This document shows, piece after piece, positions 22,980-62,930 of a DNA stretch of 64,000 bases (the first letter of the stretch is position 1; each line of letters starts with the position of its first letter). A model generated the notes under the pieces. The model did no database searches, had not been told where the DNA came from, and worked only from the letters and a program-made list of their open reading frames with translations. Made by a program: the position numbers and the translations under genes. The stretch is from contig NC_092674.1 in the NCBI RefSeq assembly GCF_964355755.1, positions 13,268,001 through 13,332,000 of the forward strand, given 5' to 3'. Source of the DNA: Antedon mediterranea. Taxonomy: Eukaryota > Animalia > Echinodermata.

Positions 22980-24815
22980 TTTAGGTATGCTATGTACGCC
23001 GGTACGCTCTTTAAATTTTAAAATTAAATATTTATTTAATCACACTGAATTATATTATAGTAACACTTATTATTAATGTTTGTAACACTTACATTTCTTG
23101 GAAGATCGAATTTAGCACCAGCCTTGAGCAAAATAGTGCAAACATCTGTGTGGCCGTTTTGTGCAGCCAAATATAAAGGTGACGCTCCATCCTGAAACAT
23201 TACAAACATGATGTTATAGTAGTTTTCACTCTAAACAAAGTATTAATATTGTACTGAAATAAATACGATGTTATCAATTAAAAATAACGTTATGGATTCA
23301 AATAATGCTACTTTGTTAAATTAAATAAAGATTATTAACCTCTGGTGTTTACTTTAAGATAATGTATTGTATACGTATACATTGGTCTTGTTTGTATAAT
23401 ATTGTTCATATAAGTACTGTACAATTGTAAACCAAATAAGTGTTTCTTTGCCTTTATCAGGTAGTGCTGACAAGTGTAAATTATGATAAGGTGGCGTTTG
23501 AACTGGCAGTTATGACAAAAAATATAATACTAGGATCCAAATTCTGTTCAACTAAATACTTACTATTGACTTTGTTTTAGTTACTGGGCTGCAATAGTTT
23601 TTTTTTTAGTTTTTTTTTTTTTAAAGATGTTTTACTAAATCAAATTGATATATCAATTCATATCCATTTAATGTATCATTTTCATAAATAAATAATGTAG
23701 CTCTGTATAGTACAATACAATACAGAAACAGAAAAGTCACCATTCAAAAAAAATCAGTCTCTAACATTCAGTGTTCTAAATGCAGATGTTAAAACTATTA
23801 CGGAATCTATTTGCACAAGGGGTGATGGACCGCTTCCTTGAACTTCAAAAATAGTACATGCGATAGGTTGGGTCTTGTTGAATCGAATGTGTTTTCTTAG
23901 TAAAGTATCTAATGATTCAAATTGAGATCTGCTTGAGATCTGCTCTGCTCGTGCCATGTTTATACCCTTACCCTTTATTGGTCGTGCCTTTTTTAAGATC
24001 ACTAGTGATTTATTTACAATCTTCAGAGTGGGTACCGTATTAATTTCATATTGTAGGTGAGTTTACGTTATAAAATGTCTTCATTGTTTTCAATTGTTTT
24101 CACCTGCTTTGATAGAGACAATACTGTTAATAATTGTTTATTAGTAAACACATAGTGTACACAAAACCAACCTAGTGTATTTTGTGCACATAATAGTGTG
24201 TAACATTTGTAATTTAGAGCGTTTATTTGACACGACAAAGCATGTGAACTCCTGAAAACGTACAGAATCATAATAATGTAGTACATATTGAATTTTGACG
24301 TAATGATTGTTGTTGTTTTTTTAGACCACACTAAGTGGTTGGTGTAACTTCACAATAATGATAATATAATGAAACATCATATGTTAGTCACCTTAATATG
24401 GTCATTTGCCATATACAGTTGAACATTCGTGAGTGGTCACCTCCCGTAGTTTCAAAAGCCCGTTTGTTCTTCATCAAATTAGTGGACCTCCTGTAAGCAG
24501 CCATCTCATGTGAGCGGCCGCGGAACTTTTTTTTTTCTCTTTTGTGAGGTTCACTCAACTTTATTTCATTTCAAAACATAAATAAAAAATTGTATTATGT
24601 TTGTATATTATTTTTTTTAATATATACTATTTTCATTCATAGACATAAAGTTTTCTCTTACATCTAAAAAAAACTCTGCAAGATATCATTTAATTTATAC
24701 ATTTACATTACATTTAAACTGAAAACAATATCAATAAATATGGAAAATCAAAATCAACTCAATAACCGGTTGCTTGTAGAGTATAGCATTTTCTATGCTC
24801 TTTTTTTTTTACTCT
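22980..24815. repeat. Recent exon+intron duplication, near-identical to ~39095-40977
   Basis: Colinear, a few percent divergent by eye; includes ankyrin exons 23093-23191 and 39194-39292. Confidence 0.92.
23093..23191 (-). CDS. Ankyrin-repeat exon (DGASPLYLAAQNGHTDVCTILLKAGAKFDLPRN)
   Basis: 99 nt, CAG acceptor, GTAAGT donor. Confidence 0.93.
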
Positions 24816-30450: not shown

Positions 30451-31421
30451 AAGCGGGTTTAAAGATAGTTATTATAAGTAGAGAACATGATGGTATAGTC
30501 AGTCGTGGTTATAACAATGGTTAACAATGGGGATAGTATAAGACAATAGAGTATATCATTTCACTAGAATTGTTATATAGATTTGTTATATATTAATATA
30601 CATTATAATATAAAATTAATAAATATTAAATAAAAATGATATGGTGATTTAGTTGCTTGTGAACAAATGGTTTACAATGGTTGAAGTCAATAGGTGTTAT
30701 GTTTCGGATTATAATACAATGGTTAACATAGGGTAAGGAAGTGAGACAATAATAGTTTTTGTAAGATTTGAATTAGTCATGGATTCAATAAAGATGCACC
30801 TGGTTAATTAAAACTAGTTAATTGAGGTTTTTGCTTGATGTATGCCGACATAATACAAAGACATAAGTTATTTGATCCGGATATTATAACAATGACTAAA
30901 ACAAAAAGATAAGAATGAATAGTTAAATAGCGTTTACAGGCAAAATATAGGCAAAATTGTAAGTATTAGTCAGATGTACAAATTACTGAAAAACAAAATA
31001 TTACTAGGAAGTATGAAACAATAGGTATTGTGTTTCGGGGTATATAACAATATATGTTAAAGGTGTCTTCCGACATATAATTAATACGGGGTATTTTATA
31101 ACAAAGATAAAAATAAAAAGAAGACTATAATGAAGTGATATAATAAGTATGTCTTGCTTGATCTTTGGCGACATAATCCAAAGACATAAGGCATTTTCTT
31201 CCGGATATTTAAGATTTGAAAATAAACGTTATTTAAGTATGTACAATTAAGTAAATAAAAGGTAATCTTCTGATGTCATGCATAAATTAATTTATGTTTA
31301 AATATCGGGGGGGGGGGGAGGGGGTATTATTTGAAATTCTATGTCAGTGTTTTCAATTACATCGAAGTCACTCAAACTCTAGTACTAGTTCCAAAGTATT
31401 ACCGTTACACGAGGTTAAAAG

Positions 31422-31922
31422 ATGAATTCTAACGTGTATACCGGTAATGAACAAAAATTTGAAAACAGCAGTCTTAGCGGTAACGAGGAATTTTTGTTAG
31501 AAATTCTTGATGACAACGATGAAATGGTAAGTTGAATCAATTTGTACAAGAAAAAAAAAGAAATTTACGTATATTATTTTCAAAATGTTATTAAGATTTA
31601 ATTTGTTCTGTCTGTTACATGGGGTCTTGTTATTTAATTTTCAGATTCGATGTATAGAAGAGTTAATTGATGATCAGAACGAATTATGTAATGAAATGGT
31701 AAGTTACTATTTCTATAAATTTATTTTTAAAATGGTAATAATATATGATATTTAGTCTAATATAAACAACATTTTGTATTACAGTACGGTATTTTGATTG
31801 AAAGTAGTAATAACGAAAGGGAAGAAACACTTCAATTAGAGAATGACATGGCAGTTGCAGAAATTTGCCGCATTGCAAGAAACAAAAGAGGTAATTTAGA
31901 CGAAGAAGAAAATGATTTATGA
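31422..31922 (+). CDS. Spliced 98-aa acidic protein with an IxCxE motif (exons 31422-31526, 31645-31698, 31785-31922)
   Basis: Two GTAAGT...CAG phase-0 introns join an open frame from ATG to TGA; missed by the ORF track. Confidence 0.7.
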
Positions 31923-32109
31923 GTATGATTGCACTTCGACCAATGTTCCGACAGGAAATACAACAATGACAATTGGCTGAAACAAATTTAGTAAATGCCG
32001 AATGTAATCATTTGACTGTATATAACTCTCGATTATTTTGTAATCTTTACCTCATTCTACAACGCTACAGAGCTCGACAAGACAGACCAAAAACCAACAA
32101 CTAGTTACT

Positions 32110-32913
32110 ATGGTTTCCGTGATTGAAATCATTGATCTTACTATGGACTCTCATGTCGAAGAAGATGTTACATATATATAAGCAGTGATTCAGAATTTGA
32201 AGACGAAGACATACTAGCTATGACTGGTGCCTATTTTACAGCAGAGGAGGAGGAAGAGATGAGGGAAGAGATGGGGGATATGACGTGTTTAATGGTGATT
32301 CAACCCCCACCTCCAATGAACGTTGATTTCAATAATGTATCTAATACTGAAGAAGACGAACATTATAGATCGAGAATAATTTCTGAAGAGGAGAGGATTG
32401 TATACGACGACACGTCATCGGTAGTTGACTACCACCTATTTCTGGCAAGAAAAGCCGATATAGAAGATGAGGTAGAAGATGGGGTGTTTGCGGAAGAGTA
32501 CCTGAACCCTGTGCTGGGGATGGAAATTTAGAAAGAAACTACCGAACAATGATGAGGTGTTTACGGAAGAGTACTTGAACCCTGTGCTGGAGGCGGAAAT
32601 TAAGAAAGAAACTACCGAACTTAAGTACAAAGAAATAATGAGAACAATTGAGAAGGTTTTCAAAGAAGAATTTATATTCATTCTGAATGACATGGTTGAA
32701 CGTTATAACTTTCACGGCTCAAGATATGAGCAACTTCTAACAATTTTTCGACCAATTCTGGCATTGAAACTTGTGGACAATAGCGCTATCCATTTTGAAT
32801 GGGCGCTAAACTACTTTCATTTACGTTGTATCAATGTTGATGCGTTCGATAAAGCCATAAAGTTGATTACAAATGATTCAGAACTGTTTAATAAGATTCT
32901 TAACCAGTTGTAA
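32110..32913 (+). pseudogene. Left-arm copy of the acidic SIM-motif gene plus downstream helical ORF
   Basis: Mirror of 36327-37126; +2 insertion near 32170 and AAG>TAG at 32529-31; downstream part 32557-32913 open. Confidence 0.8.
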
Positions 32914-33159
32914 TTTATATAAATTTAAATATTATCATAACACTTTTAATTAATGTTATATATTTTTATAATTCTTATTTCTTTTCGGTAAATTTATTAT
33001 TATTATGGTTGTAAAATATATTGAAATAGAATGTGTGTTAAAATAAAGGTTGTGTGTTTTTTTTAAGGCAACAACGAAAATGAAATTTGATCTTTGCGTG
33101 GTATTTAAGTATTTGATTTATTTTTTTAATTTTAATTTGGTTGAATGAGGGTAATGAGT

Positions 33160-33390
33160 ATGGATGAGTACATAAGAAAAGTATATTACGATCTTAAGCA
33201 TCCTGATAGTTTAGGTGGTGTGGACCGACTTTATCAAAATGTAAAAGACGATTTAAATATTACCAAGAGACAAGTTCAAGACTGACTGTGCAAGCAAGAT
33301 ACATTATACATTACACAAATCCATTCAACGTAAATTCAAACGAAACTGGGTACTTGTAAGTGCTATTGATGAACAATGGGAACTGGATTG
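33160..33390 (+). pseudogene. Maverick/Polinton integrase N-terminal fragment
   Basis: MDEYIRKVYYDLKHPDSLGGVDRLYQNVK...VQD*LCKQDT/YTLHKSIQRKFKRNWVLVSAIDEQWELD; truncated at about the first catalytic Asp. Confidence 0.88.
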
Positions 33391-34869
33391 GGAAAAATAA
33401 CGTGTTTGCAAAATCAAAGGTTTGACTTTAAAGGAAGTCAATTTTGAAATAGTTGGTAGCATGGTACGGGTACTAATCCTAACAAAATAACCCGTAAACC
33501 AAAATCTAGCTTAATATTTATTTTATATTATAAATTTGTAAAAGTAGTTACCATATTTTAATTTATGGTAAATTTATTTTTCGAATTAATTTAATTTGTT
33601 TTCTTTTCTGTTGAATTTTTATTATTATTATGTTTGTAAAGTGTATTGCAATAGATTTGTTTAATGAAATAAATTAATTATGTTTTGACTTAATTTATGT
33701 CAGTGTAAATTTGTAAAAGTAGTTTCCCTATTTTAATTCATGATAAATTTATTTCTTTTCTGTTAAAGTTTTATTATTATTATTATGTTTTGTAAAGTGT
33801 ATTACAATAGAATGTGTATTTCAATAAATTTTGTTTTTAACATCAACAACAAAAATGAAATTTTATCTTTGCGTGTTGTTTAATTCGTGTATGATGTTTT
33901 TCTAATTTATTTATAAAAAAAACAAAAATTGACTTTAAATTTCAAAAAGTCAAAGGAATTCAATTTTGAAATAGTTAGTAGCATGGTACAAGGAATCGAC
34001 AAGGAAAAAATAACAACAATTAATTTAATTTAATTCTTCTTTTCTGTGGAATTATTATTATTATTATTATTATTATTATGTTTGTGAAGTGTATTGCAAT
34101 AGATTTGTTTAATGAAATAAGTTAATTATGTTTTGACTTAATTTATGTCAGTGTAAATTTTGTAAAAGTAGTTTTCCTATTTTAATTCATGGTAAATTTA
34201 TTTCTTGACTTAATTTAATTAGTTATCTTTTCTGCTGTTATATATATGTTTTTTAAGGTGTAGTGCAATAGAATGTGTATTGAAATAAATTTTGTTTTTA
34301 ACAGCAACAATAAAAATGAAATTTGATCTTTGCGTGTTATTTAATTCCTGTATGATGTTTTTCTAATTTATTTCTACAAAAAGAAAACACATTTTTGAAT
34401 TTGTTAAATGTAATTGCAAACACGCATAATAAATGATTGTGATTAAAAATATTCTGTTTACTTCTTTTATTTTAAACAGTAGGTCTATAATGTAAAGTTA
34501 TATTTTATAATATAATAAGTAATATTACAAAAATAAACATACACAATGTATAATGCATATATTTATTACATTTAAATACAATTTTTTTATTTCAAAATGA
34601 ATTTCATATTCTACGTGTTTTTCAATTTTAAATCTTTTAAGAAAGACACAATACGTACTGCTAAAAAAAAAACACGATATGTAACGACGGTTTCAATAAA
34701 AAGTCATATTATAAATGTATTTTTACCAAATTTATAAAGTAAAGGGTTATTATTGAGAAATATACATTTTAGATAAATGATAACACATCTAAAATTAATT
34801 AGAGAGATCAATACAATATGGTGTTCATAATAATTTGTTTTGATGACTAGAGGAAACATCTGAAGACAT

Positions 34870-35415
34870 TCAACAAAAAACAAGCGTTAACACCATACCA
34901 GTCACTAAGAATGCTACTACTCTGAAAAAAACATCTCCCTTCCTGCACACAAAAATTAAAATAATTAGTAAACGAAACACGCGCATTTTAAATAAAATGA
35001 ATAATTTAAGAATATTTGTTAAAATACCCACGAACAAAAAAAAAAGAAACATACTAACCGATTCATCGTCATTACGAAGTTCAAATAACGAAAACTTTTC
35101 CTTGAAAAATCCACAAGAGACACGTTTTACATTTTCTAACTGCATTTCAGTGTCACATTGTTTCGCAACACATGTACATACAACGAGTCCTGTCACAAGT
35201 CTGCCGAAATTTATTTTTTTATCGCTCATCATTTGTTCTAATACATAATACAGCGCTTCCGAAGAAATATCTTTACACAATTCTAACACATTAAAATTGT
35301 TTTCCAACTCTTTACAAGCACGAATAGTACTCTGGAGGATGGGTGAATCCAAAACAATTAACCCCGTCAATTTATATTAAATGTATGCTAAAACTACTTC
35401 CTCTAAATCAACCAT
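34870..35415 (-). pseudogene. Bcl-2-family homologue in the palindrome spacer, with one in-frame TAA at codon 13
   Basis: BH4-like EEVVLAYI*YKL, BH3-like ILQSTIRACKELENNF, BH1-like YVLEQMMSDKKINFGRLVTGL, hydrophobic C-terminal tail; intronless. Confidence 0.8.
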
Positions 35416-35847
35416 AACGCTCGACAAAACAAATGATAATGGATGTAATTACCATGAAAGTTACAACTTAAAACATTTTAAAGAAATAAATTTATCATGA
35501 ATTAAAATAGGGAAACTACTTTTACAAATTTACACTGACATAAATTAAGTCAAAACATAATTAATTTATTTCATTAAACAAATCTATTGCAATACACTTT
35601 ACAAACATAATAATAATAAAAATTCAACAGAAAAGAAAACAAATTAAATTAATTCGAAAAATAAATTTACCATAAATTAAAATAGGGTAACTACTTTTAC
35701 AAATTTATAATATAAAATAAATATTAAGCGAGATTTTGGTTTACGGGTTATTTTGTTAGGATTAGTACCCGTACCATGCTACCAACTATTTCAAAATTGA
35801 CTTCCTTTAAAGTCAAACCTTTGATTTTGCAAACACGTTATTTTTCC

Positions 35848-36078
35848 CAATCCAGTTCCCATTGTTCATCAATAGCACTTACAAGTACCCAGTTTCGTTT
35901 GAATTTACGTTGAATGGATTTGTGTAATGTATAATGTATCTTACTTGCACAGTCAGTCTTGAACTTGTCTCTTGGTAATATTTAAATCGTCTTTTACATT
36001 TTGATAAAGTCGGTCCACACCACCTAAACTATCAGGATGCTTAAGATCGTAATATACTTTTCTTATGTACTCATCCAT
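35848..36078 (-). pseudogene. Right-arm copy of the integrase fragment
   Basis: Reverse complement of 33160-33390 with the same TGA and frameshift, plus an extra CAA>TAA. Confidence 0.88.
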
Positions 36079-36685
36079 ACTCATTACCCTCATTCAACCA
36101 AATTAAAATTAAAAAAATAAATCAAATACTTAAATACCACGCAAAGATCAAATTTCATTTTCGTTGTTGCCTTAAAAAAACACACAACCTTTATTTTAAC
36201 ACACATTCTATTTCAATATATTTTACAACCATAATAATAATAAATTTACCGAAAAGAAATAAGAATTATAAAAATATATAACATTAATTAAAAGTGTTAT
36301 GATAATATTTAAATTTATATAAATTACAACTGGTTAAGAATCTTATTAAACAGTTCTGAATCATTTGTAATCAACTTTATGGCTTTATCGAACGCATCAA
36401 CATTGATACAACGTAAATGAAAGTAGTTTAGCGCCCATTCAAAATGGATAGCGCTATTGTCCACAAGTTTCAATGCCAGAATTGGTCGAAAAAAATGTTA
36501 GAAGTTGCTCATATCTTGAGCCGTGAAAGTTATAACGTTCAACCATGTCATTCAGAATGAATATAAATTCTTCTATGAAAACCTTCTCAATTGTTCTCAT
36601 TATTTCTTTGTACTTAAGTTCGGTAGTTTCTTTCTTAATTTCAGCCTCCAGCACAGGGTTCAGGTACTCTTCCGTAAACACCTCA

Positions 36686-37126
36686 TCATTGTTCGGTAGT
36701 TTCTTTCTTAATTTCCGCCTCCAGCACAGGGTTCAGGTACTCTTCCGCAAACACCCCATCTTCTACCTCATCTTCTACATCGGCTTTTCTTGCCAGAAAT
36801 AGGTGGTAGTCAACTACCGATGACGTGTCGTCGTATACAATCCTCTCCTCTTCAGAAATTATTCTCGATCTATAATGTTCGTCTTCTTCAGTATTAGATA
36901 CATTATTGAAATCAACGTTCATTGGAGGTGGGGGTTGAATCGCCATTAAACACGTCATATCCCCCATCTCTTCCCTCATCTCTTCCTCCTCCTCTGCTGT
37001 AAAATAGGCACCAGTCATAGCTAGTATGTCTTCGTCTTCAAATTCTGAATCACTGCTTATATATATAACATCTTCTTCGACATCAGAGTCCATAGTAAGA
37101 TCAATGATTTCAATCACGGAAACCAT
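36686..37126 (-). CDS. Acidic 146-aa protein with two N-terminal SUMO-interacting-like motifs (right-arm copy, open)
   Basis: VIEIIDLTMDSD and VIYISSDSE; TATA-like sequence upstream; continues in another frame into a repeat (EEYLNPVLEAEIKKETTE x2) and a helical region to ~36327. Confidence 0.7.
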   Translation of the reverse strand: MVSVIEIIDLTMDSDVEEDVIYISSDSEFEDEDILAMTGAYFTAEEEEEMREEMGDMTCLMAIQPPPPMNVDFNNVSNTEEDEHYRSRIISEEERIVYDDTSSVVDYHLFLARKADVEDEVEDGVFAEEYLNPVLEAEIKKETTEQ

Positions 37127-37314
37127 AGTAACTAGTTGTGGGTTTTTGGTCTGTCTTGTCGAGCTCTGTAGCGTTGTAGAATGAGGTAAAGATTACAAAA
37201 TAATCGAGAGTTATATACAGTCAAAGGATTACATTCTGCATTTACTAAATTTGTTTCAGCCAATTGTCATTGTTGTATTTCCTGTCGGAACATTGGTCGA
37301 AGTGCAATCATACT

Positions 37315-37816
37315 CATAAATCATTTTCTTCTTCGTCTAAATTACCTCTTTTGTTTCTTGCAATGCGACAAATTTCTGCAACTGCCATGTCATTCTCTAA
37401 TTGAAGTGTTTCTTCCCTTTCGTTATTACTACTTTCAATCAAAATACCGTACTGTAACACAAAATGTTGTTTATATTAGACTAAATATCATATATTATTA
37501 CCATTTTAAAAATAAATTTATAGAAATAGTAACTTACCATTTCATTACATAATTCGTTCTGATCATCAATTAACTCTTCTATACATCGAATCTGAAAATT
37601 AAGTAACAAGACCCCATGTAACAGACAGAACAAATTAAATCTTAATAACATTTTGAAAATAATATACGTACATTTCTTTTTTTTTCTTGTACAAATTGAT
37701 TCAACTTACCATTTCATCGTTGTCATCAAGAATTTCTAACAAAAATTCCTCGTTACCGCTAAGACTGCTCTGTTTTCAAATTCTTGTTCATTACCGGTAT
37801 GCACGTTAGAATTCAT
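37315..37816 (-). pseudogene. Right-arm copy of the spliced IxCxE gene
   Basis: Mirror of 31422-31922 with a +2 (AG) insertion in exon 1 near 37770. Confidence 0.65.
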
Positions 37817-39193
37817 CTTTTAACCTCGTGTAACGGTAATACTTTGGAACTAGTACTAGAGTTTGAGTGACTTCGATGTAATTGAAAACACTGACATAGA
37901 ATTTCAAATAATACCCCCTCCCCCCCCCCCACCCCGATATTTAAACATAAATTAATTTATGCAGGACATCAGAAGATTACCTTTTATTTACTTAATTGTA
38001 CATACTTAAATAACCTTTATTTTCAAATCCTAAATATCCGGAAGAAAATGCCTTATGTCTTTGGATTATGTCGCCAAAGATCAAGCAAGACATACTTATT
38101 ATATCACTTCATTATAGTCTTCTTTTTATTTTTATCTTTGTTATAAAATACCCCGTATTAATTATATGTCGGAAGACACCTTTAACATATATTGTTATAT
38201 ACCCCGAAACACAATACCTATTGTTTCATACTTCCTAGTAATTTGTTTTTCAGTAATTTGTACATCTGACTAATACTTACAATTTTGCCTATATTTTGCC
38301 TGTAAACGCTATTTAACTATTCATTCTTATCTTTTTGTTTTAGTCATTGTTATAATATCCGGATCAAATAACTTATGTCTTTGTATTATGTCGGCATACA
38401 TCAAGCAAAAACCTCAATTAACTAGTTTTAATTAACCAGGTGCATCTTTATTGAATCCATGACTAATTCAAATCTTACAAAAACTATTATTGTCTCACTT
38501 CCTTACCCTATGTTAACCATTGTATTATAATCCGAAACATAACACCTATTGACTTCAACCATTGTAAACAATTTGTTCACAAGCAACTAAATCACCATAT
38601 CATTTTTATTTAATATTTATTAATTTTATATTATAATGTATATTAATATATAACAAATCTATATAACAATTCTAGTGAAATGATATACTCTATTGTCTTA
38701 TACTATCCCCATTGTTAACCATTGTTATAACCACGACTGACTATACCATCATGTTCTCTACTATTATATATGAGATTTTTTTTTTTTTCAAGACAGTTTA
38801 TCAGGAACCGATCCATATTTTGTTCTTTCTTGAGTAAAGTTTCGGGATCATTAATTTGACAAATAATAGTTCTTTGGTGAGATCTTGCTTGGAAGTTTCC
38901 AGGTCTCGGGGTTTAAATGACCGCGACTTTTAAACTATCATTGGTTGATCTAACTGCCCAATGTCAAGATTAACCTTGACGAAGTAGCGGTGTTCCGAAC
39001 CATGTTAGGGGTACAACCGTGCAGTTCTCGACAATACAGTAATCCTCGATACAAAATATGAAATGATATATGACCCGCAATGTGAGTTGGTTCATTTAGG
39101 TATGCTATGTACGCCGGTATGCTCTTTAAATTTTAAAATTAAATCACATTGAATTATATAGTAACACTTATTATTAATGTTTGTAACACTTAC

Positions 39194-39292
39194 ATTGCTT
39201 CGAAGATTCAATTTAGCACCAGCCTTGAGCAAAACAGTGCAAACATCTGTGTGGCCGTTTTGTGCAGCCAGATATAAAGGTGACGCTCCATC
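39194..39292 (-). CDS. Ankyrin-repeat exon (DGASPLYLAAQNGHTDVCTVLLKAGAKLNLRSN)
   Basis: 99 nt, CAG acceptor, GTAAGT donor. Confidence 0.93.
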
Positions 39293-39696
39293 CTGAAACA
39301 TTACAAACATGATGTTATAGTAGTTTTCACTCTAAACAAATTATTAATATTGTACTGAAATCAATACGATGTTATCAATTAAAAATAACGTTATGGATTC
39401 AAATAATGCTACTTTGTTAAATTAAATAAAGATTATTAACCTCTGGTGTTTACTTTAAGATAATAGATTGTATACGTATACATTTGTTTTGCTTGTATAA
39501 TATTGTTCATATAAGTACTGTACAAATGTAAACCATATAAGTGTTTCTTTGCCTTTATCAAGTAGTGCTGACGAGTGTAAATTATGATAAGGTGGCGTTA
39601 GAACTGGCAGTTATGACAAAAAATATTATACTAGGATTCAAATTCTGTTCAACTAAATACTTACTATTGACTTTGTTTTACTTACTGGGCTGGAAT

Positions 39697-39734
<38 letters not shown>

Positions 39735-40977
39735 TGTTTTACTAAATCAAATTGATATATCGATTCATATCCATTTAATGTATCATTTTCATAAAATAAA
39801 TAATGTAGCTCTGTACAGCACAATACAATACAGAAACAGAAAAGTCACCATTGAAAAAAATCATTCTCTAACATTCAGTTTTCTAAATGCAGATGTTAAA
39901 ACTATTACGGAATCTATTTGCACAAGGGGTGATGGACCGCTTCCTTGAATTTCAAAAATAGTACATGCGATAGGTTGGGTCTTGTAAAATCGAATGTGTT
40001 TTTTTAGTAAAGTATCTAATGATTCAAATTGAGATCTGCTTGAGGTCTGCTCTGCTCGTTTGAGTTCAAACGTGTCATTTTGTGCCATGTTTTTCCCTTA
40101 CCATTTATTGGTCGTGCCATTTTTAAGATCACTAGTGATTTATTTACAATCTTCAGAGTGGGTACCGTATTAATTTCATATTGTAGGTGAGTTTACGTTA
40201 TAAAATGTCTTAATTGTTTTCAATTGTTTTCACCTGCTTTGATAGAGACAATACTGTTAATAATTGTTTATTAGTAAACACATAGTGTACACAAAACCCA
40301 CCTAGTGTATTTGTGCACATAATAGTGTGTAACATTTGTAATTTAGAGCGTTTAATTGACACGATAACGCATGTGAACTCCTGAAAACGTACAGAATCAT
40401 AATAATGTAGTACATATTGAATTTTGACGTAATGATTGTTGTTGTTTTTTTAGACCACACTAAGTGGTTGGTGTAACTTCACAATAATGATATAATGAAA
40501 CATCATATGTTAGTCACCTTAATAATGGTCATTTGCCATATACGATGATTTAAAAATTCAGAGTTTTAATATTATAGTATTACAGTTGAACATTCGTGAG
40601 TGGTCACCTCCCGTAGTTTCAAAAGCCCGTTTGTTCTTCATCCAATTAGTGGACCTCCTGTAAGCAGCCATCTCATGTGAGCGGCCGCGGAAATTTTTTT
40701 TTTCTCTTTTTTGAGGTTCACTCAACTTTATTTCATTTCAAAACATAAATAAACAATTTTCCTATGTTTGTATATTATTTTTTTTAATATATACTATTTT
40801 CATTCATAGACATAAAGTTTTCTCTTACATCTAAAAAAAACTCTGCAAGATATCAGTTATACATTTACATTACATTTAAACTGAAAACAATATCAATAAA
40901 TATGGAAAATCAAAAGCAACTCAATAACCGGTTGCTTGTAGAGTATAGCATTTTCTATGCTCTTTTTTTTTTACTCT

Positions 40978-44157: not shown

Positions 44158-47100
44158 CACCCGATTCTGCTACTGTCCACAGGTGCTATCTTTAAAACTA
44201 TAGCAAGTTATACACGTTGTTGTCTGCTATAAATGCTGTACTTTTAACACACGGTACACTGTCTGTAGCACAGTGTGTGTTGACAATTTACAATGATGTA
44301 CAACCATAGGCAGGTTTTCGTACTGCCATGCAAGAATGGATAGGTGTTTTCCGCCGCTTTTAGGCCTTCTAGTCAGTTATTGTTATTATTATACGAATTA
44401 CGTAATTGGTCTAGTAGCTCATCTACCTTTTTAGCAGGGCATAATGAATATTGTAGCTAGGCTAGGGCTACTAGTCTAGCGGAAAATCAACCAATTATTT
44501 GGTTGGATACGAGTTTAGGGTAGGAAGTTAAGTACGAGTTGGCATGGGTACGAGACGACCAGGGGTGAATCGACCAGAGTACACCCGGCTGCCCTACTAG
44601 AGCATAGGCTACAGGCCTGCAGGAATGGGAAATCTGTCTTAGCTATAGGCATAGGCCTACATTGGGACGCCCAAAAAAGCCATCATATGAGCATAAAAAG
44701 GCCTCGTAGAGCCAGACATGTTAACATACACTACACAGTACTAGTACGTCTACCATTTATTATAGTTCCATGGTACTACGGATCACTACTATCTAGGTCT
44801 AGTAGTAGTAGTAGGCTAGCTAGGGTAGGGTTCCAGTAATTTTGGTCGCGTTTTTTCAGGAGGGCATGCGAGAGGTGAGGTAGGTTAGCCCAGCTAGGCT
44901 AAACTAACATGTAAGTAGTATTCTACCATGGGATGGGAACGAGTCGGCATGGGGGTACGGGTTGATCTTTATCCGTATTCTATGATGCTGGTCAACCCGT
45001 AAAGTACCCATGTCAACTCGTACCAAACTTGGCTAACTCGTACCCAAATAATTGGTCAACTCGTACCAATAGCTTTATAGCTTTATTGATAGCTGGGTTC
45101 AAATCTAGTTTGGGACGTTTTTTTCTCATTCTAAAACAGATTTCCTTATAATAATAAAATAATATCGACCTATGAATTTAACTGTAATATTGTATTGTAT
45201 GCATAATATTAGTAGTAAAAGTAATTCCCATTGAATTTATTATTATAATATATTTTACGGTAACCCCTTAATTATACTATAGTATAACTTCCTTGTTATA
45301 TTTTACAATATTTTCTTCATAATTCAACAATTTTTTTTCACAGCTAATTATCAAACTGAATCATCACACACCAAATCTCATGAAATCTCTAGTGTATTTC
45401 TCCAAGCTAATCCAGCTACATGGTATTGCCTTGAGGCTAAACTACACTGTATACTGGGCACTACCATCATTCCTGGCCCGTCAACCTGGACCACATTATG
45501 GTCCAACACAGTCGTGTAGTACTGATTCCAAATAGTGAATTACATCCTGTGGTCAAGGATTTATTTGCACTTATGCTTATTTCCTCCAACATACCGTAGA
45601 GTACGTAGGGCTTTTAATTTGCTTTTATACCTGTTAATTAAAAAATCGTTTATGCCTATTGTTGCATAAAGATCAAATTTAGACTGTAAATACTGGGATG
45701 ATCACCCTACATTTTCTTTTTCATTTAACAATTTTATATTTCACAGCCAGAAAAAAGCATACAGAGTTTTTTTATTCATAACTGTTGAATTGCATCCCAA
45801 TACATGGTACCTATTGGTATTATATCTATAATAATAAAGTACTCTCTTATAAATAGATCTTTCCAAACCACTCCAACTACATAATCTAATAATAGTACTA
45901 TTAGCATACTACTGTACACTTTGTAGACAAGAAATAAGTTGTATCCACCTAGATGACTTATGTTAGTATTGTACAGTCGATCGTCCTCTCACTAGTCTGG
46001 TCAACATAATCTACGCCTAGATTATTACAGTAATTAAAGTACATTATTACAGAGATTTTTTTTTTCAGAAATCAAAGTTATGTGTATAGAAAGCAGTACT
46101 CGTATTAAAAACTAAGCAGGTTGTACTCTTGAACGCCAGCTGGCAGGAATATTTTGAATATTTGTTGTTGTTGAAATGATGGAATCCTAACTTCAATTTC
46201 CACGAACTGGAGACGAAGACATATTACGACCCTTTTATTTAAATTTATTTGGATAGACATCCATGTAAATTCATTAAAGGCTATATGATTGTTTTATATT
46301 TTAATATGTGATAGTAGAAAATCATTGTGTATAATGAGGACTATGAATCTGATATTTACTTGCATTCTCATCTTTTTAAAATTTTATTTATAATGCTGGT
46401 AATGAATTTACTATTGAAAAAGTCATGTGTCCACTTATCTCAAATTGTGGCACACCTCTAACCTTGGTAGAACTGACTGTGTTCTATATGAGTACATTTA
46501 ATTTGCCATTATAGTAGTGTTTCCACCATACTTGAACCTGGTAATTGAATACATTTCATCGGGGTAAAATTATCACCTTTAACATAAAGTATCCTCCTGA
46601 AACATGTATTTGTACTGTACTTCATCTACTATTCATTTAATTACTTAATACTAATTTGGGTGATTTATGTCTAACTTCAGGAATGATCTGAGGCTAGAAG
46701 AACGAATTTCTGCACATATAGTTTATATAAAAAATAAACCAATGTTTTCCTAAAAAGTTAACCCCTAGGTTGATAACTAACAAAGAAATTATTAAAATTG
46801 TGTTCTCACAATATATGTGTACTGTATCTACATATGCATACTGCTGTACTTGTTTTTAACCGCATAATGGCATTTAAAAAAAAGAATGTTTTATAATTAT
46901 TATGTTATTTCCAAATATTAAAGGTCTGAAACAGAAACTAAATGTTACCAAACTATGTTTTTGAAAATCTCTATGATATAATATAATAATATGAACATAA
47001 TATTAAATTATATTGACTATTTTTGATAATCGTCATGTCCTTATAAATTCATTTATATTTCTTTTGTGTAATATAGTTCATATATTATGTATTAAATAAA

Positions 47101-50100
47101 TTGGTAAGGCCCTATACTGTTTATATTTAAGGAAAGTTTATTATACACTATTATTTTATGCCTACCAATATTAGTATTAATTGTTTATGTAACTATTTTG
47201 TCTAATTGCATTGATTTTTTGTATAGGCCAATGGAATTAATGTTTTCTCAAATCAAATTAGCCTATTATAATGCCATATTTAGACACATAGATCATTGAT
47301 TTCTGATATTCTGTACTTGTGTATGCATTACTAAAATAGTAGATATTTTATTTCATTTATAATGTATGTATAAACTTTTATTCAGTTTTTTTTTACATTT
47401 TTAAGTTTAAAAATTATTAGAATACCTATCTACGTTTCTGTTATTGTTACTATTATAATATTTTTTGAGGCAGATTGATTTCATTAAAAACATTTTAAAC
47501 AATTAATTTGATTTATACTGTACTATGTTAGTTCAGGAGATGAAGTGTGTGTTGGTAGAATCTGGTGTGTTGGAGGTTGGTGATGTGAGGTGTACTTTTG
47601 TCACTTTAAGACCTAAATTAGATGTTTTCTGAAGAAAAGTGGATAGGATTTCAAACAACTCCAAGAAGATTCACACAAAAATAATTACTTCCCAATAAAA
47701 TAGTATGTAACAGTGTATATTACACTACATTGAATAAACTCGAGCGGAAAAATAACACACATAAAAATCATTAATTTCCTTGTCGAAAAGCGCCCTCTCT
47801 AGTTTTCTATTAATTTATTAATAATTATTATTAATTAATAAGTAATATAAACTTATTTTTAACATTAATGCTGGAAGCTGATTCTACTCCTAACAAGGTG
47901 TCATACCTCCAAATTTCGTCAACGTATTCAAAGCACTTCAATAAATATCACATTGAACATTAAAAATTAGGGTTATGGATAGAATTTTGCTTAAAAACAT
48001 ATACAAAAAACATCGATAAAAAATACTTTTCGAATTTAAAAACATTTGAAACTTCTTTTATATGTTCAATATAGGTTGCTCTATTCACAGAAACAAAATT
48101 TCATTCATGAACGTTTTTTGTTGGTTGTTTTTTTCAAAATCGTTATTAGGTTTAAAAAATGCATTGGAATTGTATGGTCTTTCATAAGTGTACATTTTGT
48201 AAAAACTTAAATTTAAAAAAACAGTAATATGGCTCGATAGTTTTTTTTTGCAATATGGATGGAGCAACCTATATTGAACATTTATACCAAGTATCAAATG
48301 TTTTTGAATACGAAAACTATTTTTTATCGATGTTTTTTGTATATGTTTTAAGCAAAATTCTATCCAAAACCCTAATTTGTAATGTTCAATGTGATATTTA
48401 TTGAAGTGCTTTGAATACGTTGATGAAATTTGGAGGTATGAAACTTTGTTTGGAGTCGAATCAGCTTCAAGCATCAAATGTTAAAAATATGTTTATATTA
48501 CTCATTAATTAATAATAATTATTAATAAATTAATAGAAAACTAGAGAGGGCGCTTTTCGACAAGGAAATGAATGTTTTTTTATGTGTGTTATTTTTCTGC
48601 TCGAATTCATTCAATGTACTTTAATATACACTATTACATACTATTTTATTGGGAAGCCTATTCGCTTCAGAAATCAATGAATTATGTGTCTAAATATGGC
48701 ATTATTAGGCTAATTTGCTTTGAGAAAAACATTAATGCCATTGGCCTATACAAAAAATCAATGCAATTAGACAAAATAGTTACATAAACAATTAATACTA
48801 ATATTGGTAGGCATAAAATAATAGTGTATATAAACTTTCCTTAAATATAAACAGTATAGGGCCTTACCGATTTATTTAATACATAATATATGAACTATAT
48901 TACACAAAAGAAATATAAATGAATTTATATTATAAGGACATGATGATTATCAATATAATTTAATATTATGTTCATATTATTATATTATATCATAGATATT
49001 TTCAAAAACATAGTTTAGTAACATTTAGTTTCTGTTTCAGACCTTTAATATTTGGAAATAACCTACAGTATAATAATTATAAAACATTCTTGTTTTCAAT
49101 GTCATTATGCGGTTAAAAACAAGTACAGCAGGATGCATATGTAGATACAGTACACCTATATATTGTGAGAACATAATTTCTATAATTTCTTTGTTAGTTA
49201 TCAACCTAGGGGTTAAATTATTAGGAAAACATTAGTTTATTTTTTATATGTGTACAGAAATTCGTTCTTCTAGCCTCAGATCATTCCTGAAGTTAGACAT
49301 AAATCACATAAAATAGTATTAAGTAATGGATATTAGATGAAGTACAGTACAAATACATGTTTCAGGAGGATACTTTATGTTAAAGGTGATAATTATTTTA
49401 AATGTTACCCCAATGAAATGTATTCAATTACCAGGTTGAAGTAGTATGATGGAAACACTACTATATGTACTCATGTACGTACTCTGTATGTTAGAGGAAA
49501 TAAGCATAAGAGAAAATAAAGCCTTGACCACAGGATGGAATCAGTAGTACACGACTGTACTTATGTGTGGGCTAGGAATGATGGTAGTGCCAGTATACAG
49601 TTTAATTTAGCAATACCATGTAGCTGCATTAGCTTGCAGAAATACAGTAGAATGATTTCATGAGACTTGGTGTGTGATGATTCAGTATGATAATTTGTGC
49701 TGTGAAAAAAAAAATTGCTGAATTATGAAGAAAATATTGTAAAATATAACAAGGAAGTTATACTATAGTTACTATAATTAAGGGGTAACCGTAAAATATA
49801 TAATAATAATAATAAATGCTATGGGAATTACTAATATTATGTAAACAATACAATATTAAGTTAAATTCATAGGCCGATATTATTTTATTATTATAAGGAA
49901 ATCTGTTTTTGAATGAGAAAAAGCCGTCCCAACCCAGATTTGAACCCAGTATCAATAAAGCTATAAACAGAATAGACCGGAATTTAGCGTAGACCTACTC
50001 GAGGCCTAGTAAGATTAGCTAGAAGAATACAGGTCAACCCGTACCAATTCCAACTCGTAACCAAATTTTGGTTTATTCGTACCCAAAATGTTGGCTCACT

Positions 50101-51071
50101 CTCGCAATCATCAAGGGCTGGCTCGTACTCTTCATGGGCTGACCAGTATCCATGTTTAATGCTATTAAAAGTTTGGGTACAGGTTAGCCAAAGTTGGTAC
50201 GATTTGACCAATTATTTGAGTACGGGTTAGCCAAATTGGGTACGAGTTGGCATGGGGGTTGACCAGCACCCTAGAAAATGATAAGGGTCAACCCGTACCA
50301 CTGTGCCAACTCGTTCCCATGCTGGAATACTACTTACAGGTTAGTTTAGCCTAGCTGGGCTAACCTACCTCACCTCTCACATGCCCTCCTGATAAGTAGG
50401 CCGAAAACGCGACCGAAATTACTAGGCCTAGCCTAGATAGTAGTGATCCGCAGTATAGTACCATGGAACTATAGTATAATAAATGGTAGACGTACTAGTA
50501 CTGTGTAGTATAGGCTAACACGTCTGACCTGTTTATGCTCATGGGATTGCTTTTTTGGGCGTCCCAATGTAGGCCTATGCCTATAGCTAGGACAGATTTC
50601 CCATTCCTGCAGGCCTGTAGCCTATGCTCTAGTAGGGCGGCCGGGTGTACCCTGGTCGATTCACCACTGGACGACTCGTACCCATGCCAACTCGTACTTA
50701 ACTTCCTACCCTAAACTCGTATCCAACCAAATAATTGGTTGATTTCCCGCTAGACTAGTAGGCCTAGCCTAGCTACAATATTCATTATGCCCTGCTAAAA
50801 AGGAAGATGAGCTACTAAACTAATTACGTAATTCGTATAATAATAACAATAATTGACAAGAAGGCCTAAAAGCGGCGGAAAAGACCTATCCATTCTTGCA
50901 TGGCAGTACGAAAACCTGCCCATGGTTGTACATCGTTGTAAATTGTCAACAGGCACTGTGCTACAGACAGTGTACCGTGTATTAAAAGTACAGCATTTAT
51001 AGCAGACAACAACGTGTATAACTTGCTATAGTTTTACAGATAGTACCTGTGGACAGTAGCAGAATCGGGTG
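44158..51071. mobile_element. 6.9-kb foldback DNA element, possibly P/Galileo-like and non-autonomous
   Basis: Termini CACCCGATTCTGCTACTG...CAGTAGCAGAATCGGGTG; arms pair inward to ~48082/48260; flanks AAATATA / CAATATA (7 bp, 1 mismatch); joined flanks match the paralogous intron at ~6530-6960. Confidence 0.85.
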
Positions 51072-56869: not shown

Positions 56870-58310
56870 ATAGTAAACCAATAAAACTTACGTTGGCAAG
56901 ACAGTTTCGTCTAGCTGTCATCTTGACTTCTTCAGTTGCTATGATGCGTTATGTCTACGACTGGTCTACTTTCCATCCACTAGATGTTTTTGTTGTGTAG
57001 CCAGGGGACCAGTCGTCGTCAGAAGCTGATCGTAAATGTGAGATAGTTGGTGCGCGCCTTCGTCTCTATTCATCTTTGTATTTTTATTTTGCTTTCTTAT
57101 GCTGATGCTTTCTTTAATTTTACGTTTAAGCCAAACTTGTTCTTTGTGTAGTACCTCTATCTTATCCCAGTTAGGTATGTGGTTGTGTGTGGTCATATGG
57201 TCCGTGATCGCTGATTTATGTAAAATGGAGGACGAAACTTTCCGTGATGCACGCGTCTGTATGTTCTGTGTGTTTTCCTCAACATCTTTCTTGTGTTCTT
57301 TAATTTGGTTTTGAGTGCCCTACCCGTTTCCCCAATGTACACCATCTCACAGTTGGTGCAACCCACTTTGCAGACAACACCACAGGAATCCTCTTTGCAT
57401 GCTTTATCTTTCGGTCGGACGATTAAGTTTTTTATTTTGTTAGATGGTTTAAAGTATGTTCGTATGTTATATTTTTTAAATGTTCTCTTGATTTTCTCTG
57501 ACAGGCCTTGAATATAAATGGGATGGATATCGACCCTCTTATGTCTTCTGTTTCGGGGTGTGTGTCCGTTTTTTGTTTATCTTAGTTACGTTGTACCTTT
57601 CTAATCGTCCATGTAGGGTAGTTACATTGTTTAAGTGAAGTATGTATATTCTTAGTTTCGTTCTGTTTGTCTGTATTATTTGTGATTATCGTGTTACATC
57701 TGTGTAGAGTGTGCGGATAACGGATAACTTGTGTTGTAGAGGATGATGTGAGTTAAAGTCCAAGTATTGATTTGTGTGGGTGGCTTTCCTAAAAACTTTA
57801 GTGTTGATGTTGCCTTCCCCATCAACTAAAACTAGTGTATCCAAGAATGGGATAGAGTTGTCTGTTAAGGACATTTCTTCGCAAGTGAAATTAATGGCAT
57901 CATCGAAGTGTTGTAATAATGGTTGTGTCGCATCCTTGGGAATTATTGTTATAATGTCATCTACATACCTTTTCCATATCCTCGGTTTTATGTCGGTATG
58001 AGCTGTAGTTATTGCCTCATTTTCCAGCCATTCCATAAATAAATTCGCAACAATCAGAGAACATGGACTACCCATGGCCATACCTGAATTTTTCTGGTAG
58101 ATATCCCCTCTGAAATATGTGGTGTTGAGTACCAATTGAAGCAATTCCATAATGTCGTTGATATGTAACCACGTTCTCTCTGATAGTTGTTTATCACAGT
58201 GTAAGCGTTCTTCAGTTATTTTGAGAGACTTGTTGTCTGGTGTTTTGGTAAATAATGACACTACATCATAAGAGACCAATGTTTCATTTGGCTGTAACTA
58301 TCAAAGAACT
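56870..58310 (-). mobile_element. Penelope-like retroelement, 5'-truncated (RT + GIY-YIG)
   Basis: SYDVVSLFT, GMAMGSP, WKRYVDD, PFLD, FRKATHTNQYL; then YIGETG, SAITDH, RKIKESISI, MNRDEG; frameshifted. Confidence 0.93.
56896..56939 (-). ncRNA. Minimal type I hammerhead ribozyme in the Penelope terminal repeat
   Basis: GCAA-CUGAAGA-AGUC(loop)GAC-GAAA-CU-GUC-UUGC: conserved core, stems I and II, GUC cleavage triplet. Confidence 0.75.
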
Positions 58311-60198: not shown

Positions 60199-60969
60199 TC
60201 AAGAATCACTAGCCACTAACAATATCAACTTGTGAATAGGTCGTTCGTAATGACCACTCTGATGACGAAGTTTGACCTTCCATACGAGATCATCCTTGCT
60301 CTTCATCACTTCCACAATTCGACCAAGCTTCCAATCATTGCGTGGTGCATTTTCATCCTTGATGATAACTATGTCACCTACACAAAAATTCCTTCTAGTG
60401 ACGTTCCACGTTTGTCTGGTTTGAAGAGTGGTGAGATACTCGTTACGCCACCGATGCCAAAACTGATTGGCCATAAACTGGACCCGCCGCCATCTCCTTC
60501 GGCAATATATATCACTTGCCTGGAATTCGCCTGGTGGTGGTAACAGAATATTTGACTTCATTGTCAACAAGTGATTCGGTGTGAGTGCTTCTGGAGCTGT
60601 AGGATCTGAAAGATTGTTTACAGTTAACGGACGTAAATTTACAATACTCTGTACCTCACAAAAAAATGTGCGAAAAGTTTCGTCACACAGATGATCTCCA
60701 CAGCTATTCAATAATTGTGTCAACGCACTGCGCACAGTCCTTATTTGACGCTCCCATACGCCTCCCATGTGACTTGCTGTGGGAAAATTAAGTATCCATC
60801 TACATTGCTGGTCACGTAGAAAGTTTTGCACTTTACAGAACTCGTTGATCGCCCCAACAAAATGTGTTCCCTGGTCCGATCGCATCTGGTATACTGGACC
60901 TCTTATGCTTAAGAAACGTCGTAAGGCGTTTATGAATGAATTTGTTTCTAGTGAGTTGACTGATTCAAG
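60199..60969 (-). pseudogene. BEL/Pao integrase, C-terminal part
   Basis: FINALRRFLSIRGP, RSDQGTHFVGA, ASHMGGVWERQIR, RPLT, LTPNHLL, FWHRWRNEYL, ERPIHKL. Confidence 0.95.
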
Positions 60970-62930
60970 ATTTATTTATTTATTTCGTTTTCTTTTAGTA
61001 GGGTAGCCCTCTCTGTAATAAAATAAAACTGCTCTTCCGAGGGGCCCTACGGCACATTTAAACAAAATTTGAAAACAACTTAAACTAAACTTAAACTAAA
61101 ACTTAAACTAAAACTAAACTTCAATGCATGTTCTCATTATTATTATACTTTTATACCATATTTAAATATATTTCACTGGAACCATCCTAGACCACCGGCA
61201 ACAATAAATGAATCTTAACAAGTGATTTAAAACGGTTATAATTGTTTTGTTTTCTTAATTCATAAGGTAGGCCATTCCAGAGTGAACTTCCATAATAAAC
61301 AAAACTACGTTTGTATATTTTGAGGTTACATCTGGGCAAATACAACAGATTATTTTCATAGTTTCTGGTTTGAATATTGTGTACACTACTAATATATTGC
61401 AAAACATCACATAAGTATGAAGGTACAGATTCTTGTAAACATATAAATATTGTACAAATTGTATGATATTCAATTCTTGTCTTAATTGTTAGCCAACCTA
61501 AATCATAATGCATTTGTCTAACAGGAGTTCGAATATCAGCACCTAGTGTTAATCGTGCAGCTCTATTTTGTACCCTTTGCAATTTTAAAATATGGGCGTT
61601 TGAACCAGTACCCCAGACTGTTGAACAATAGTCAATATGTGATAAAAATAGAGCATTGTATAATCTTTTAATAATTTTAAGAGATGTAAAACTTTTCAAT
61701 CTATAAAATAGATGTAGAATTGTTGATAGTTTTGCACATATAGAATCAATATGTACTTTCCATGAGAGTTGTTCATCAAATGTAAGTCCCAAATATTTAA
61801 ACGTTTCAACTTTCTCATCTCAATCGGAATGTTATCAAAAATTACTGTTTCATCTGTTGTTTTATTAACACGTGCATGAGTACCAAAAAGCATGTATTTG
61901 GTTTTATCAATGTTTAGAGTTAATTTATGTTTATCTAACCATTGTTTTACATTTTCCAACTGTTCAGTTAAAACTGTTGTAAGCTCTTCATTTGATTTAC
62001 ATGCATAAAAAAGCGCAGTGTCGTCTGCATAGAGGACTGTTTTACAAATCCCATCAACACTATCATGTAAATCATTTATGTATAAAATAAACAACAAAGG
62101 GCCAAGAATTGAGCCTTGTGGTACCCCATAGTTGACATTTAAAATTTCAGATTTTTTTCCATTAAAATTAACAAATTGTTTGCGATTTTTTAAATAATTA
62201 CTGAACCATGCAAGCTCAGTGTTTATCATTCCAAAGGTGCATAATTTACGTAATAAAATATCGTGGTCTACCGTATCAAACGCCTTTTTTAGGTCAAGAA
62301 AAATTGCTCCAGTTACCAAGCCATTATCAATATTTTTATATATATAATTGCATACATCTATCAGTGTAGTAGAAGTTGAATGTAACGACCTAAAACCAGA
62401 TTGATTTTTACATAATAAATTAAACTCATTTATATGATTCATAACTTGATTATGGATGCATCTTTCAAAAACTTTCATAACAATAGGTATAACAGATATT
62501 GGACGGTAGTTGTTAAGTTTATGTTTACATCCTCCTTTATAAAGCGGAGTAACCTTAGCACATTTCCATTCACTTGGAATAACACCAGATCTTAATGACC
62601 AGTTAAACAAAAAGGCAAGACTTTGAGAAATTTGTGAAGATGCAATTTTAAGTAACCTAGCGGAAATCCCATCAATTCCAGTAGCTTTTCCAATTTCTAA
62701 CTTTTCCAACAAAGCTTCAATTTCATTTTCATTAATATCTTTAAAGTTGAAACGTTGTTGAAATTGTGATAACGATTCAACGGTAATATCGTTTTGGTTG
62801 TCATTAAAATGGGATGCAAGTTCATTAGAAATTGAACAAAAATATTTATTAAAATGATTAGCAATATCAGTTGGATTGTTTATTTCATTACCGTTTACAT
62901 TGAGAGTTGTTTTAGTTTGTTTCTTTTTAC
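60970..62930 (-). mobile_element. 5'-truncated CR1/L2-group LINE (RT, ORFs 61696-62712 and 61187-61792 separated by a frameshift)
   Basis: KATGIDGI, NYRPIS, QSGFR, FLDLKKAFDTVDH, GVPQGSILGPLLF, YADD; (TAAA)n tail at 60971-60985. Confidence 0.95.

Follow-up and report, generated by a model that had tools for sequence, protein, structure and literature searches.

The window analysed here, a 64-kb stretch of DNA from Antedon mediterranea, holds at 30477-38762 an element of 8286 bp (8.3 kb) that is likely a non-autonomous derivative of the Maverick type. Two inverted, gene-bearing arms of about 3.3 kb (3.28 kb) each make up most of it. Its parts, other than the three-exon gene described further below, are as follows.

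30471..30476, no strand: left target-site duplication, ATTATA, 6 bp; the same 6-mer stands at 38763-38768
30477..33758, plus strand: left arm, with the terminus AGTAGAGA; aligned with the right arm in 3289 columns at 98.8% identity
32110..32531, plus strand: left copy of ORF2, acidic, with a frameshift near 32170
32506..32913, plus strand: ORF3, 135 aa from stop to stop, of no family
33145..33400, plus strand: broken, integrase-like fragment
34870..35415, minus strand: Bcl-2-like gene, placed in the unique central segment, with a long hydrophobic C-terminus and an in-frame stop near the 5' end
35480..38762, minus strand: right arm, an inverted copy of the left arm
36686..37126, minus strand: open copy of ORF2 in the right arm, 146 aa
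38763..38768, no strand: right target-site duplication, 6 bp

Mavericks are described as having terminal inverted repeats, AGT-type termini, (AGT)2 or (AG)3 ends, and a 6-bp target duplication (PMC8097293). Inverted terminal repeats and a 6-bp target-site duplication are both present here, and the ends of the element read AGTAGAGA, a mix of the (AGT)2 and (AG)3 end motifs. No protein-primed PolB was detected in the window's copy of the element by tblastn or in the ORF listing, and no capsid, ATPase, or protease gene was matched among its main ORFs scanned against Pfam. Because the element has no polymerase, capsid, or ATPase gene, it was taken as a non-autonomous derivative and not as an intact member. 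Just three ATG-started ORFs of at least 100 aa lie inside it.

ORF2 begins with two hydrophobic-then-acidic segments, which we take to be of the SUMO-interacting-motif-like class; neither Pfam nor PHROGs gave a family match for it. The same two collections gave no family for ORF3, for which no longer relative was found among 271 candidates. The fragment at 33145..33400 resembles the N-terminus of a Maverick integrase, and the integrase-like pieces had no match in Pfam, PHROGs, or PDB. The gene in the centre matched the Pfam Bcl-2 family with E=2.4e-5 (25.2 bits, under the cut-off of 31.4) and fowlpox FPV039 with E=0.055.

In its layout the element is the same end taken twice, head to head around a centre of 1.7 kb, with one target duplication. 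Since a single target duplication encloses both arms, the element has likely moved as a unit. The open copies of the genes are split by arm. The left arm has those of the three-exon gene and of ORF3, the right arm has that of ORF2, and each of the three is thus present once in open form. At the border of ORF2 and ORF3 there is a tandem duplication of 73 nt (32478-32547 and 32551-32620). Contigs of sequencing runs X2 and X3 omit one 73-nt unit (32502^32576), and many copies are thus without the duplication.

Other repeats were noted in the window. A second, older inverted structure of about 6.9 kb lies at 44158-51071; its arms are 82-90% alike, its centre is near 48170, and no clear ORF or target duplication was seen in it. 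Retrotransposon pieces with DUF1759, RVT_1, and DUF5641, presumably of BEL/Pao type, occupy 60199-63683 on the minus strand, and a further RVT_1 piece is found at 57686-58150. A repeat of about 1.8 kb occurs in two copies (approximately 23050-24815 and 39150-40977) that are 16.1 kb apart and 97-98% alike in blocks; the second copy begins about 400 nt from the right end of the element.

Anatomy of the three-exon gene

The first sizeable gene past the terminus at 30477, as the first-pass annotation had placed it, is composed of three short exons.

31422..31526, plus strand: exon 1, 105 nt, 35 codons, acidic (9 D/E), with an ATG directly 5' of the donor; equals residues 1-35 of RefSeq isoforms X4 and X1
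31527..31644, plus strand: intron 1, 118 nt, GTAAGT..TTTCAG, phase 0; 14 substitutions and frame-breaking indels among copies
31645..31698, plus strand: exon 2, 54 nt, 18 codons; 18/18 identical to RefSeq isoforms X4 and X1
31645-31659, plus strand: IRCIE (IxCxE), codons 1-5 of exon 2
31699..31784, plus strand: intron 2, 86 nt, GTAAGT..TTACAG, phase 0; its removal shows in run X1 at two loose contig ends
31785..31922, plus strand: exon 3, 138 nt, 45 codons and a stop; 44/45 identical to RefSeq isoform X4; paralogous to the first part of the polymerase-front exon
31917..31940, plus strand: seam holding the stop codon; variant contigs exit the window sequence at 31904/31916, and others rejoin at 31941
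37314..37816, minus strand: mirror copy of the three-exon gene in the right arm, with a frameshift in exon 1

The exons join in frame across two GT..AG introns, both of phase 0, into a product of 98 aa. The three exons, the short introns, and the acidic product had been drawn correctly before; both joins recur in RefSeq XP_071955304.1. The gene had also been called hidden. It is hidden from ORF scans only, as RefSeq already has a model of it. Its mirror copy (37816-37314, minus strand) had been overlooked. The two donors, earlier described as identical, are nearly so (15/16 letters alike). There are five ATGGTAAG sites in the 64-kb window; the two donors account for two of them and the mirror copies of the donors for two more. 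The A+T content was 77-84% for the introns vs 67-72% for the exons. Exons 1 and 2 showed a weak similarity to each other in a shuffle test (p=0.02).

The product contains three isolated Cys. No significant family was obtained from Pfam or PHROGs for the exons or for the RefSeq isoforms, and the ESM Atlas gave generic structure rows only, with no feature match for isoform X4 or for residues 54-204 of isoform X1. A FERM_f0 match (E=0.028-0.16) was below the cut-off and was discarded. About 100 nt 5' of the start codon there is a G-run (31309-31325), the length of which differs between arms and copies; it is possibly part of the promoter.

Splicing and variation among copies

When exon 3 was used as the query, one protein was retrieved among 6 candidates, namely XP_071955304.1 (A. 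mediterranea, isoform X4, 98 aa). Both of its exon joins are the same as ours, and it is identical to the window product at 94/98 residues. The stretch is contained in five sequencing runs, none of which is recorded as RNA; that run X1 is RNA is a guess. In that run, one contig goes on beyond exon 2 at 31698 with the opening 13 letters of exon 3, and another enters exon 3 at 31784 carrying the end of exon 2. Of the two junctions that had been proposed, 31698^31785 is therefore spliced in run X1, each spliced end being a single contig. Intron-bearing contigs occur in run X1 as well. Runs X2, X3, and X5 had no spliced end at this junction among the loose ends listed (22 of 32).

The other proposed junction, 31526^31645, was present in spliced form in no contig, and the same 22 of 32 loose ends included none there. 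The contig comparison listed no joint at either intron. What suggests splicing at this first junction is the RefSeq model, together with the splice signals and the places where indels fall. Of 11 indels listed within the gene, 10 were intronic and not multiples of three, and the single exonic one was of 3 nt; this tally comes from the 12 of 23 indels that were listed, and some of these place one event in alternative ways. Overall, the exons as drawn are real, and the data support a spliced gene.

Substitutions were compared among copies from four runs. Exon 2 had 0 in 54 nt vs 17 in 204 nt for the introns (Fisher p=0.027), and with the intron clusters collapsed the contrast had p=0.13. Exons 1 and 3 together had 11 amino-acid-changing vs 5 silent variants; hence these two exons carry no sign of purifying selection.

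The stop codon of the 98-aa product (31920-31922) falls in the seam. RefSeq isoforms X2 and X3 can be aligned to exon 3 up to 31916 and then continue. Contigs from all four runs cross the seam with 0-1 differences, and the stop of the short form is common to copies of both samples and to RefSeq isoform X4. As variants diverge at the seam and yet contigs of four runs span it, the seam that holds the stop codon is typical of one subfamily and not private to the window copy.

Relation to the polymerase gene

A search of isoform X4 against 1.84 billion representatives gave 3 matches, all of them isoforms of one RefSeq gene. Isoform X1 (204 aa) is identical to isoform X4 over residues 1-53, that is, over exons 1-2, and then runs into a different tail of 151 aa. 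When isoform X1 was compared with longer proteins, there was one match among 922 candidates: XP_071948939.1 (647 aa), encoded on another chromosome, which has DNA_pol_B_2 with E=7e-25. Residues 58-109 of isoform X1 match residues 56-107 of this protein (43/53 identical, 81%, E=5e-22), and the isoform X1 tail thus opens with the exon that lies at the front of the polymerase gene of the element.

XP_071948939.1 has its own acidic leader of 53 aa, with a Met at residue 53 as in exons 1-2. A close alignment exists between this leader and the C-terminal part of isoforms X2/X3. The first 46 residues of these isoforms are a 68% paralogue of exon 3; there the exon-3 paralogue is without the stop and continues for at least 85 residues. 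Exon 3 itself is similar to the start of the isoform X1 tail (local score 57 vs 24.3 +/- 4.2 for shuffled sequences, p=0.0002, 5000 shuffles) and to the same stretch of XP_071948939.1 (p=0.006). No relationship to the sister leader was detectable for exons 1-2 (p=0.14 and 0.20). In viral contigs, isoform X1 and the PolB model each had 13 pattern matches with 0 confirmed relatives; in metagenome contigs, isoform X1 had 319 pattern matches, again with 0 confirmed relatives.

The front of the Polinton pPolB is described as a terminal-protein domain (D1) of four strands and two helices (PMC11071308). AlphaFold gave a pLDDT of 43 for the whole of isoform X1, too low for use. A single-sequence model of the cropped tail had a pLDDT of 53 and a strand-helix...helix-strand order. 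The best fold matches of this cropped model (pLDDT 53) were generic alpha/beta folds (Z 8.1, rmsd 4.1, 98 aligned). Nothing in BFVD matched it at E<=0.001, and its best 50 matches included no terminal protein. Its likeness to adenovirus E4 (BFVD; PDB 4djb, Z 7.5, rmsd 3.6, 96 aligned) was within background and was rejected. The single-sequence model is too weak to bear out the terminal-protein fold. From its alignment to the polymerase front, the isoform X1 tail may be a terminal-protein domain.

The IxCxE motif

It had been proposed that IxCxE is assembled by splicing. This was not borne out, as the core lies wholly in exon 2; splicing supplies only the frame and the acidic residues at -2/-3, which come from the exon 1 side. 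Translation of the core still depends on splicing, since unspliced read-through from exon 1 meets a stop codon two codons inside intron 1. The IRCIE core is preceded by E/D at -2/-3; after it come Leu at +2 and Ile at +3, and the tail that follows is acidic. Flanks that favour affinity for the Rb pocket are acidic upstream and hydrophobic at +2/+3, and the IxCxE motif of PRDM2 is reported to bind Rb at ~0.6 uM (10.1101/2022.06.10.495386). By the rules of the same source, an [LI]xCxE core with acidic residues at -1 to -3 and hydrophobic residues at +2/+3 is present here. In shuffles of the 98-aa protein, the core motif arose by chance in 11% and the extended motif in 3.3%, figures that apply to a motif spotted after the fact.

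The likeness to the Rb-pocket motif of E1A and E7, which the first-pass annotation had drawn, holds for these favourable flanks but not for the extra features of those proteins. Neither a CR1 match nor a paired CxxC was found in the 98-aa product, and there is no CK2 site next to the motif; [ST]xx[DE] occurs at residues 7, 19, and 61 only, the nearest after the motif being 21 residues on. As for the proposed conservation of the Cys and Glu, IxCxE is invariant among near-identical copies (4 runs), but [LI]xCxE is absent from 3/3 sister-leader proteins, which are not clear orthologues. No diverged orthologue in which the conservation of the motif could be followed was found among the 1.84 billion representatives or in viral and metagenome contigs. 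Binding of the Rb pocket by the IxCxE of exon 2 is a tentative prediction from the motif and its flanks; the invariance of exon 2 among copies and the Bcl-2-like cargo of the element speak for it too, but we would sooner expect it to fail than to hold.

Discussion

The stand-alone, E1A-like microprotein proposed at first is not the best fit to these data, because isoform X1 joins exons 1-2 to an exon of the PolB model. Exon 3, moreover, is paralogous to the polymerase-front exon (p=0.0002), the stop lies in a seam, and the extras of E1A/E7 are absent. We consider it probable, at roughly 0.65, that the 98-residue product is the short form of a Maverick/Polinton replication gene, in which exons 1-2 are a leader of 53 residues common to two forms, one continuing into exon 3 and the other into the exon at the start of the terminal-protein/DNA-polymerase gene. 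Isoforms X1 and X4 belong to one A. mediterranea gene, which speaks for the shared leader. Against it, the source of the long join is automated RefSeq modelling of copies that are repeated and in part degraded; isoform X1 ends short of any catalytic domain; XP_071948939.1 is itself without exons 1-2; and exon 1 has a frameshift in one of the window's two copies. That the leader is spliced to the polymerase exon in living transcripts is what the database models would suggest.

Under the shared-leader arrangement, a promoter near the end of the element would drive one transcript, with exons 1-2 encoding an acidic leader of 53 residues. Judging from the RefSeq isoforms, the exon-2 donor would pick among downstream acceptors, those of the polymerase-front exon (long form) or of exon 3 (98 aa). 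In the long form, the leader would supply the polymerase precursor with its start codon and with an acidic, probably disordered N-terminus. The window copy, having no polymerase exon, would yield the short form only, and from the left arm only, the right-arm copy being frameshifted. Through the IxCxE of exon 2, the long and the short form alike might hold on to Rb-family pockets with modest affinity and thereby favour S phase, a step that we put forward with the same reserve as the predicted Rb binding itself. A unit in the style of large T/small t, in which Antedon Mavericks carry an Rb-motif leader on either the terminal-protein/polymerase or a short exon, and Rb is engaged by the precursor of the replicase as well as by a small isoform on its own, is more speculative still and on balance doubtful.

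Adintoviruses carry LxCxE-bearing 'Oncoid' ORFs, typically upstream of PolB, along with Bcl2 homologues (Starrett et al. 2021, PMC8502044), and the 98-aa product could be such a dedicated early protein of the E1A/E7 kind: the main, selected product, acting on Rb through IxCxE and paired with the Bcl-2-like gene as E1A is with E1B-19K, the join to the polymerase being incidental. The place of the gene next to the terminus would suit this, as would the Bcl-2-like gene within the same element, the agreement of the motif flanks with the affinity rules of 10.1101/2022.06.10.495386, and the short form's stop, common to copies in both samples and to RefSeq X4. The freedom of exon 2 from variants (0/54 nt vs 17/204 intron nt, Fisher p=0.027) counts for it too, but becomes p = 0.13 once the intron clusters are collapsed. 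Exon 3 looks like a shortened paralogue of the polymerase-front exon and varies freely. Given also that CR1 and CxxC are absent, that the nearest CK2 motif is 21 residues past the motif, and that no relative outside Antedon was found among the 1.84 billion representatives (3 matches, one gene), we hold this explanation to be improbable.

Somewhat less improbable, though still unlikely, is that the gene is a functionless by-product of tandem-duplicated leader modules, isoform X1 being a read-through of adjacent broken copies and IxCxE a chance occurrence in an acidic, Ile/Leu-rich segment. Duplication is suggested by the near-identical donors and the weak similarity of exons 1 and 2 (p=0.02); the 11% chance of the core motif, the near-neutral variants in exons 1 and 3, and a non-autonomous element with most of its genes broken in one or both arms all agree with such an origin. 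Yet the listed frame-breaking indels among copies are intronic and exon 2 is invariant, and the layout of a leader followed by a polymerase exon, with Met at residue 53, recurs in a second model on another chromosome. Two variants of the exon arrangement were also considered. The leader could lie in the terminal repeat of the parent element, one end of which would then serve the polymerase and the opposite end exon 3, but isoforms X1 and X4 are one gene and hence on one strand. The reading frame would permit exon 2 to be fused to ORF2, yet no model backs such a fusion.

A leader shared by the polymerase and the short form thus remains our preferred reading, and it invites comparison with other systems. 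In the polyomaviruses, large T and small t are a replication protein and a shorter product with a common N-terminus, made by alternative splicing. The shared coding leader of the adenovirus E2 unit is of a few codons and the Rb-binding protein E1A is a separate unit, unlike in Antedon, where the leader would be of 53 codons and bear the motif. Adenovirus terminal protein (pTP) and polymerase are made by alternative splicing from one upstream start, and the alternative splicing from a common start proposed here is alike by analogy (PMC9499273). In the mastreviruses, Rep and RepA are a spliced/unspliced pair, both with LxCxE in wheat dwarf virus (PMC10548238). An N-terminus common to the replication protein and a shorter product is what the Antedon gene would share with mastrevirus Rep/RepA and the polyomavirus T antigens; the replication protein in those is a rolling-circle Rep or a helicase, unrelated to the protein-primed polymerase here, and the analogy is of design only.

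The element resembles the Mavericks/Polintons (TP-vOTU-pPolB) in its terminal inverted repeats, 6-bp duplication, and the linked protein-primed PolB model in the host, and its ends mix the two AGT-type motifs (PMC8097293, PMC11071308). Intact vertebrate Mavericks are given as intron-free, 12.7-24.6 kb long, and with TIRs of 46-1447 bp (PMC8097293); the Antedon copy differs from them in its 8.3-kb length, 3.3-kb gene-bearing arms, lack of core genes, and spliceosomal introns. The available text of the descriptions of nematode and coral Polintons makes no mention of spliceosomal introns in their genes (PMC10748475; PMC11131425), and the Introners inserted in dinoflagellate polinton-like elements are a different case (PMC11957031).

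A further parallel is with the adintovirus Oncoids: in both, a small gene with an Rb-type motif lies upstream of PolB in a Maverick-type element, with a Bcl-2 homologue as an accessory (PMC8502044). Oncoids are defined as a class by short motifs alone (10.1101/2024.03.25.586562); they were called as ORFs with LxCxE plus CK2, CR1, or CxxC, and the main text of PMC8502044 is silent on splicing. Unlike them, the Antedon gene has introns, I for L, none of the CK2/CR1/CxxC extras, and an apparent sharing of exons with the polymerase unit. An Rb-motif gene upstream of PolB and a Bcl-2 cargo are thus known already from adintoviruses, and the new point is the spliced leader that is probably shared with the polymerase. 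In the literature listings consulted, no publication dealt with the Mavericks of Antedon or described a Maverick polymerase with a spliced leader; Kapitonov and Jurka 2006, Repbase, and the genome maps in the supplement of PMC8502044 lay beyond these listings and may bear on the point.

If the leader reading holds, annotation by ORFs only would miss the true start of the polymerase, the replication protein may itself carry an Rb-type motif, and Mavericks would be linked to adenoviruses, polyomaviruses, and mastreviruses, the early units of which are based on splicing. Should the unit with an Rb-binding leader be true as well, some adintovirus 'Oncoids' upstream of PolB would be unrecognised leader exons of the polymerase, and deleted copies like that of the window would retain an Rb-binding short form together with a Bcl-2-like gene. 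The Antedon gene offers a small and direct test, with one peptide and one host pocket, of whether Oncoids bind Rb.
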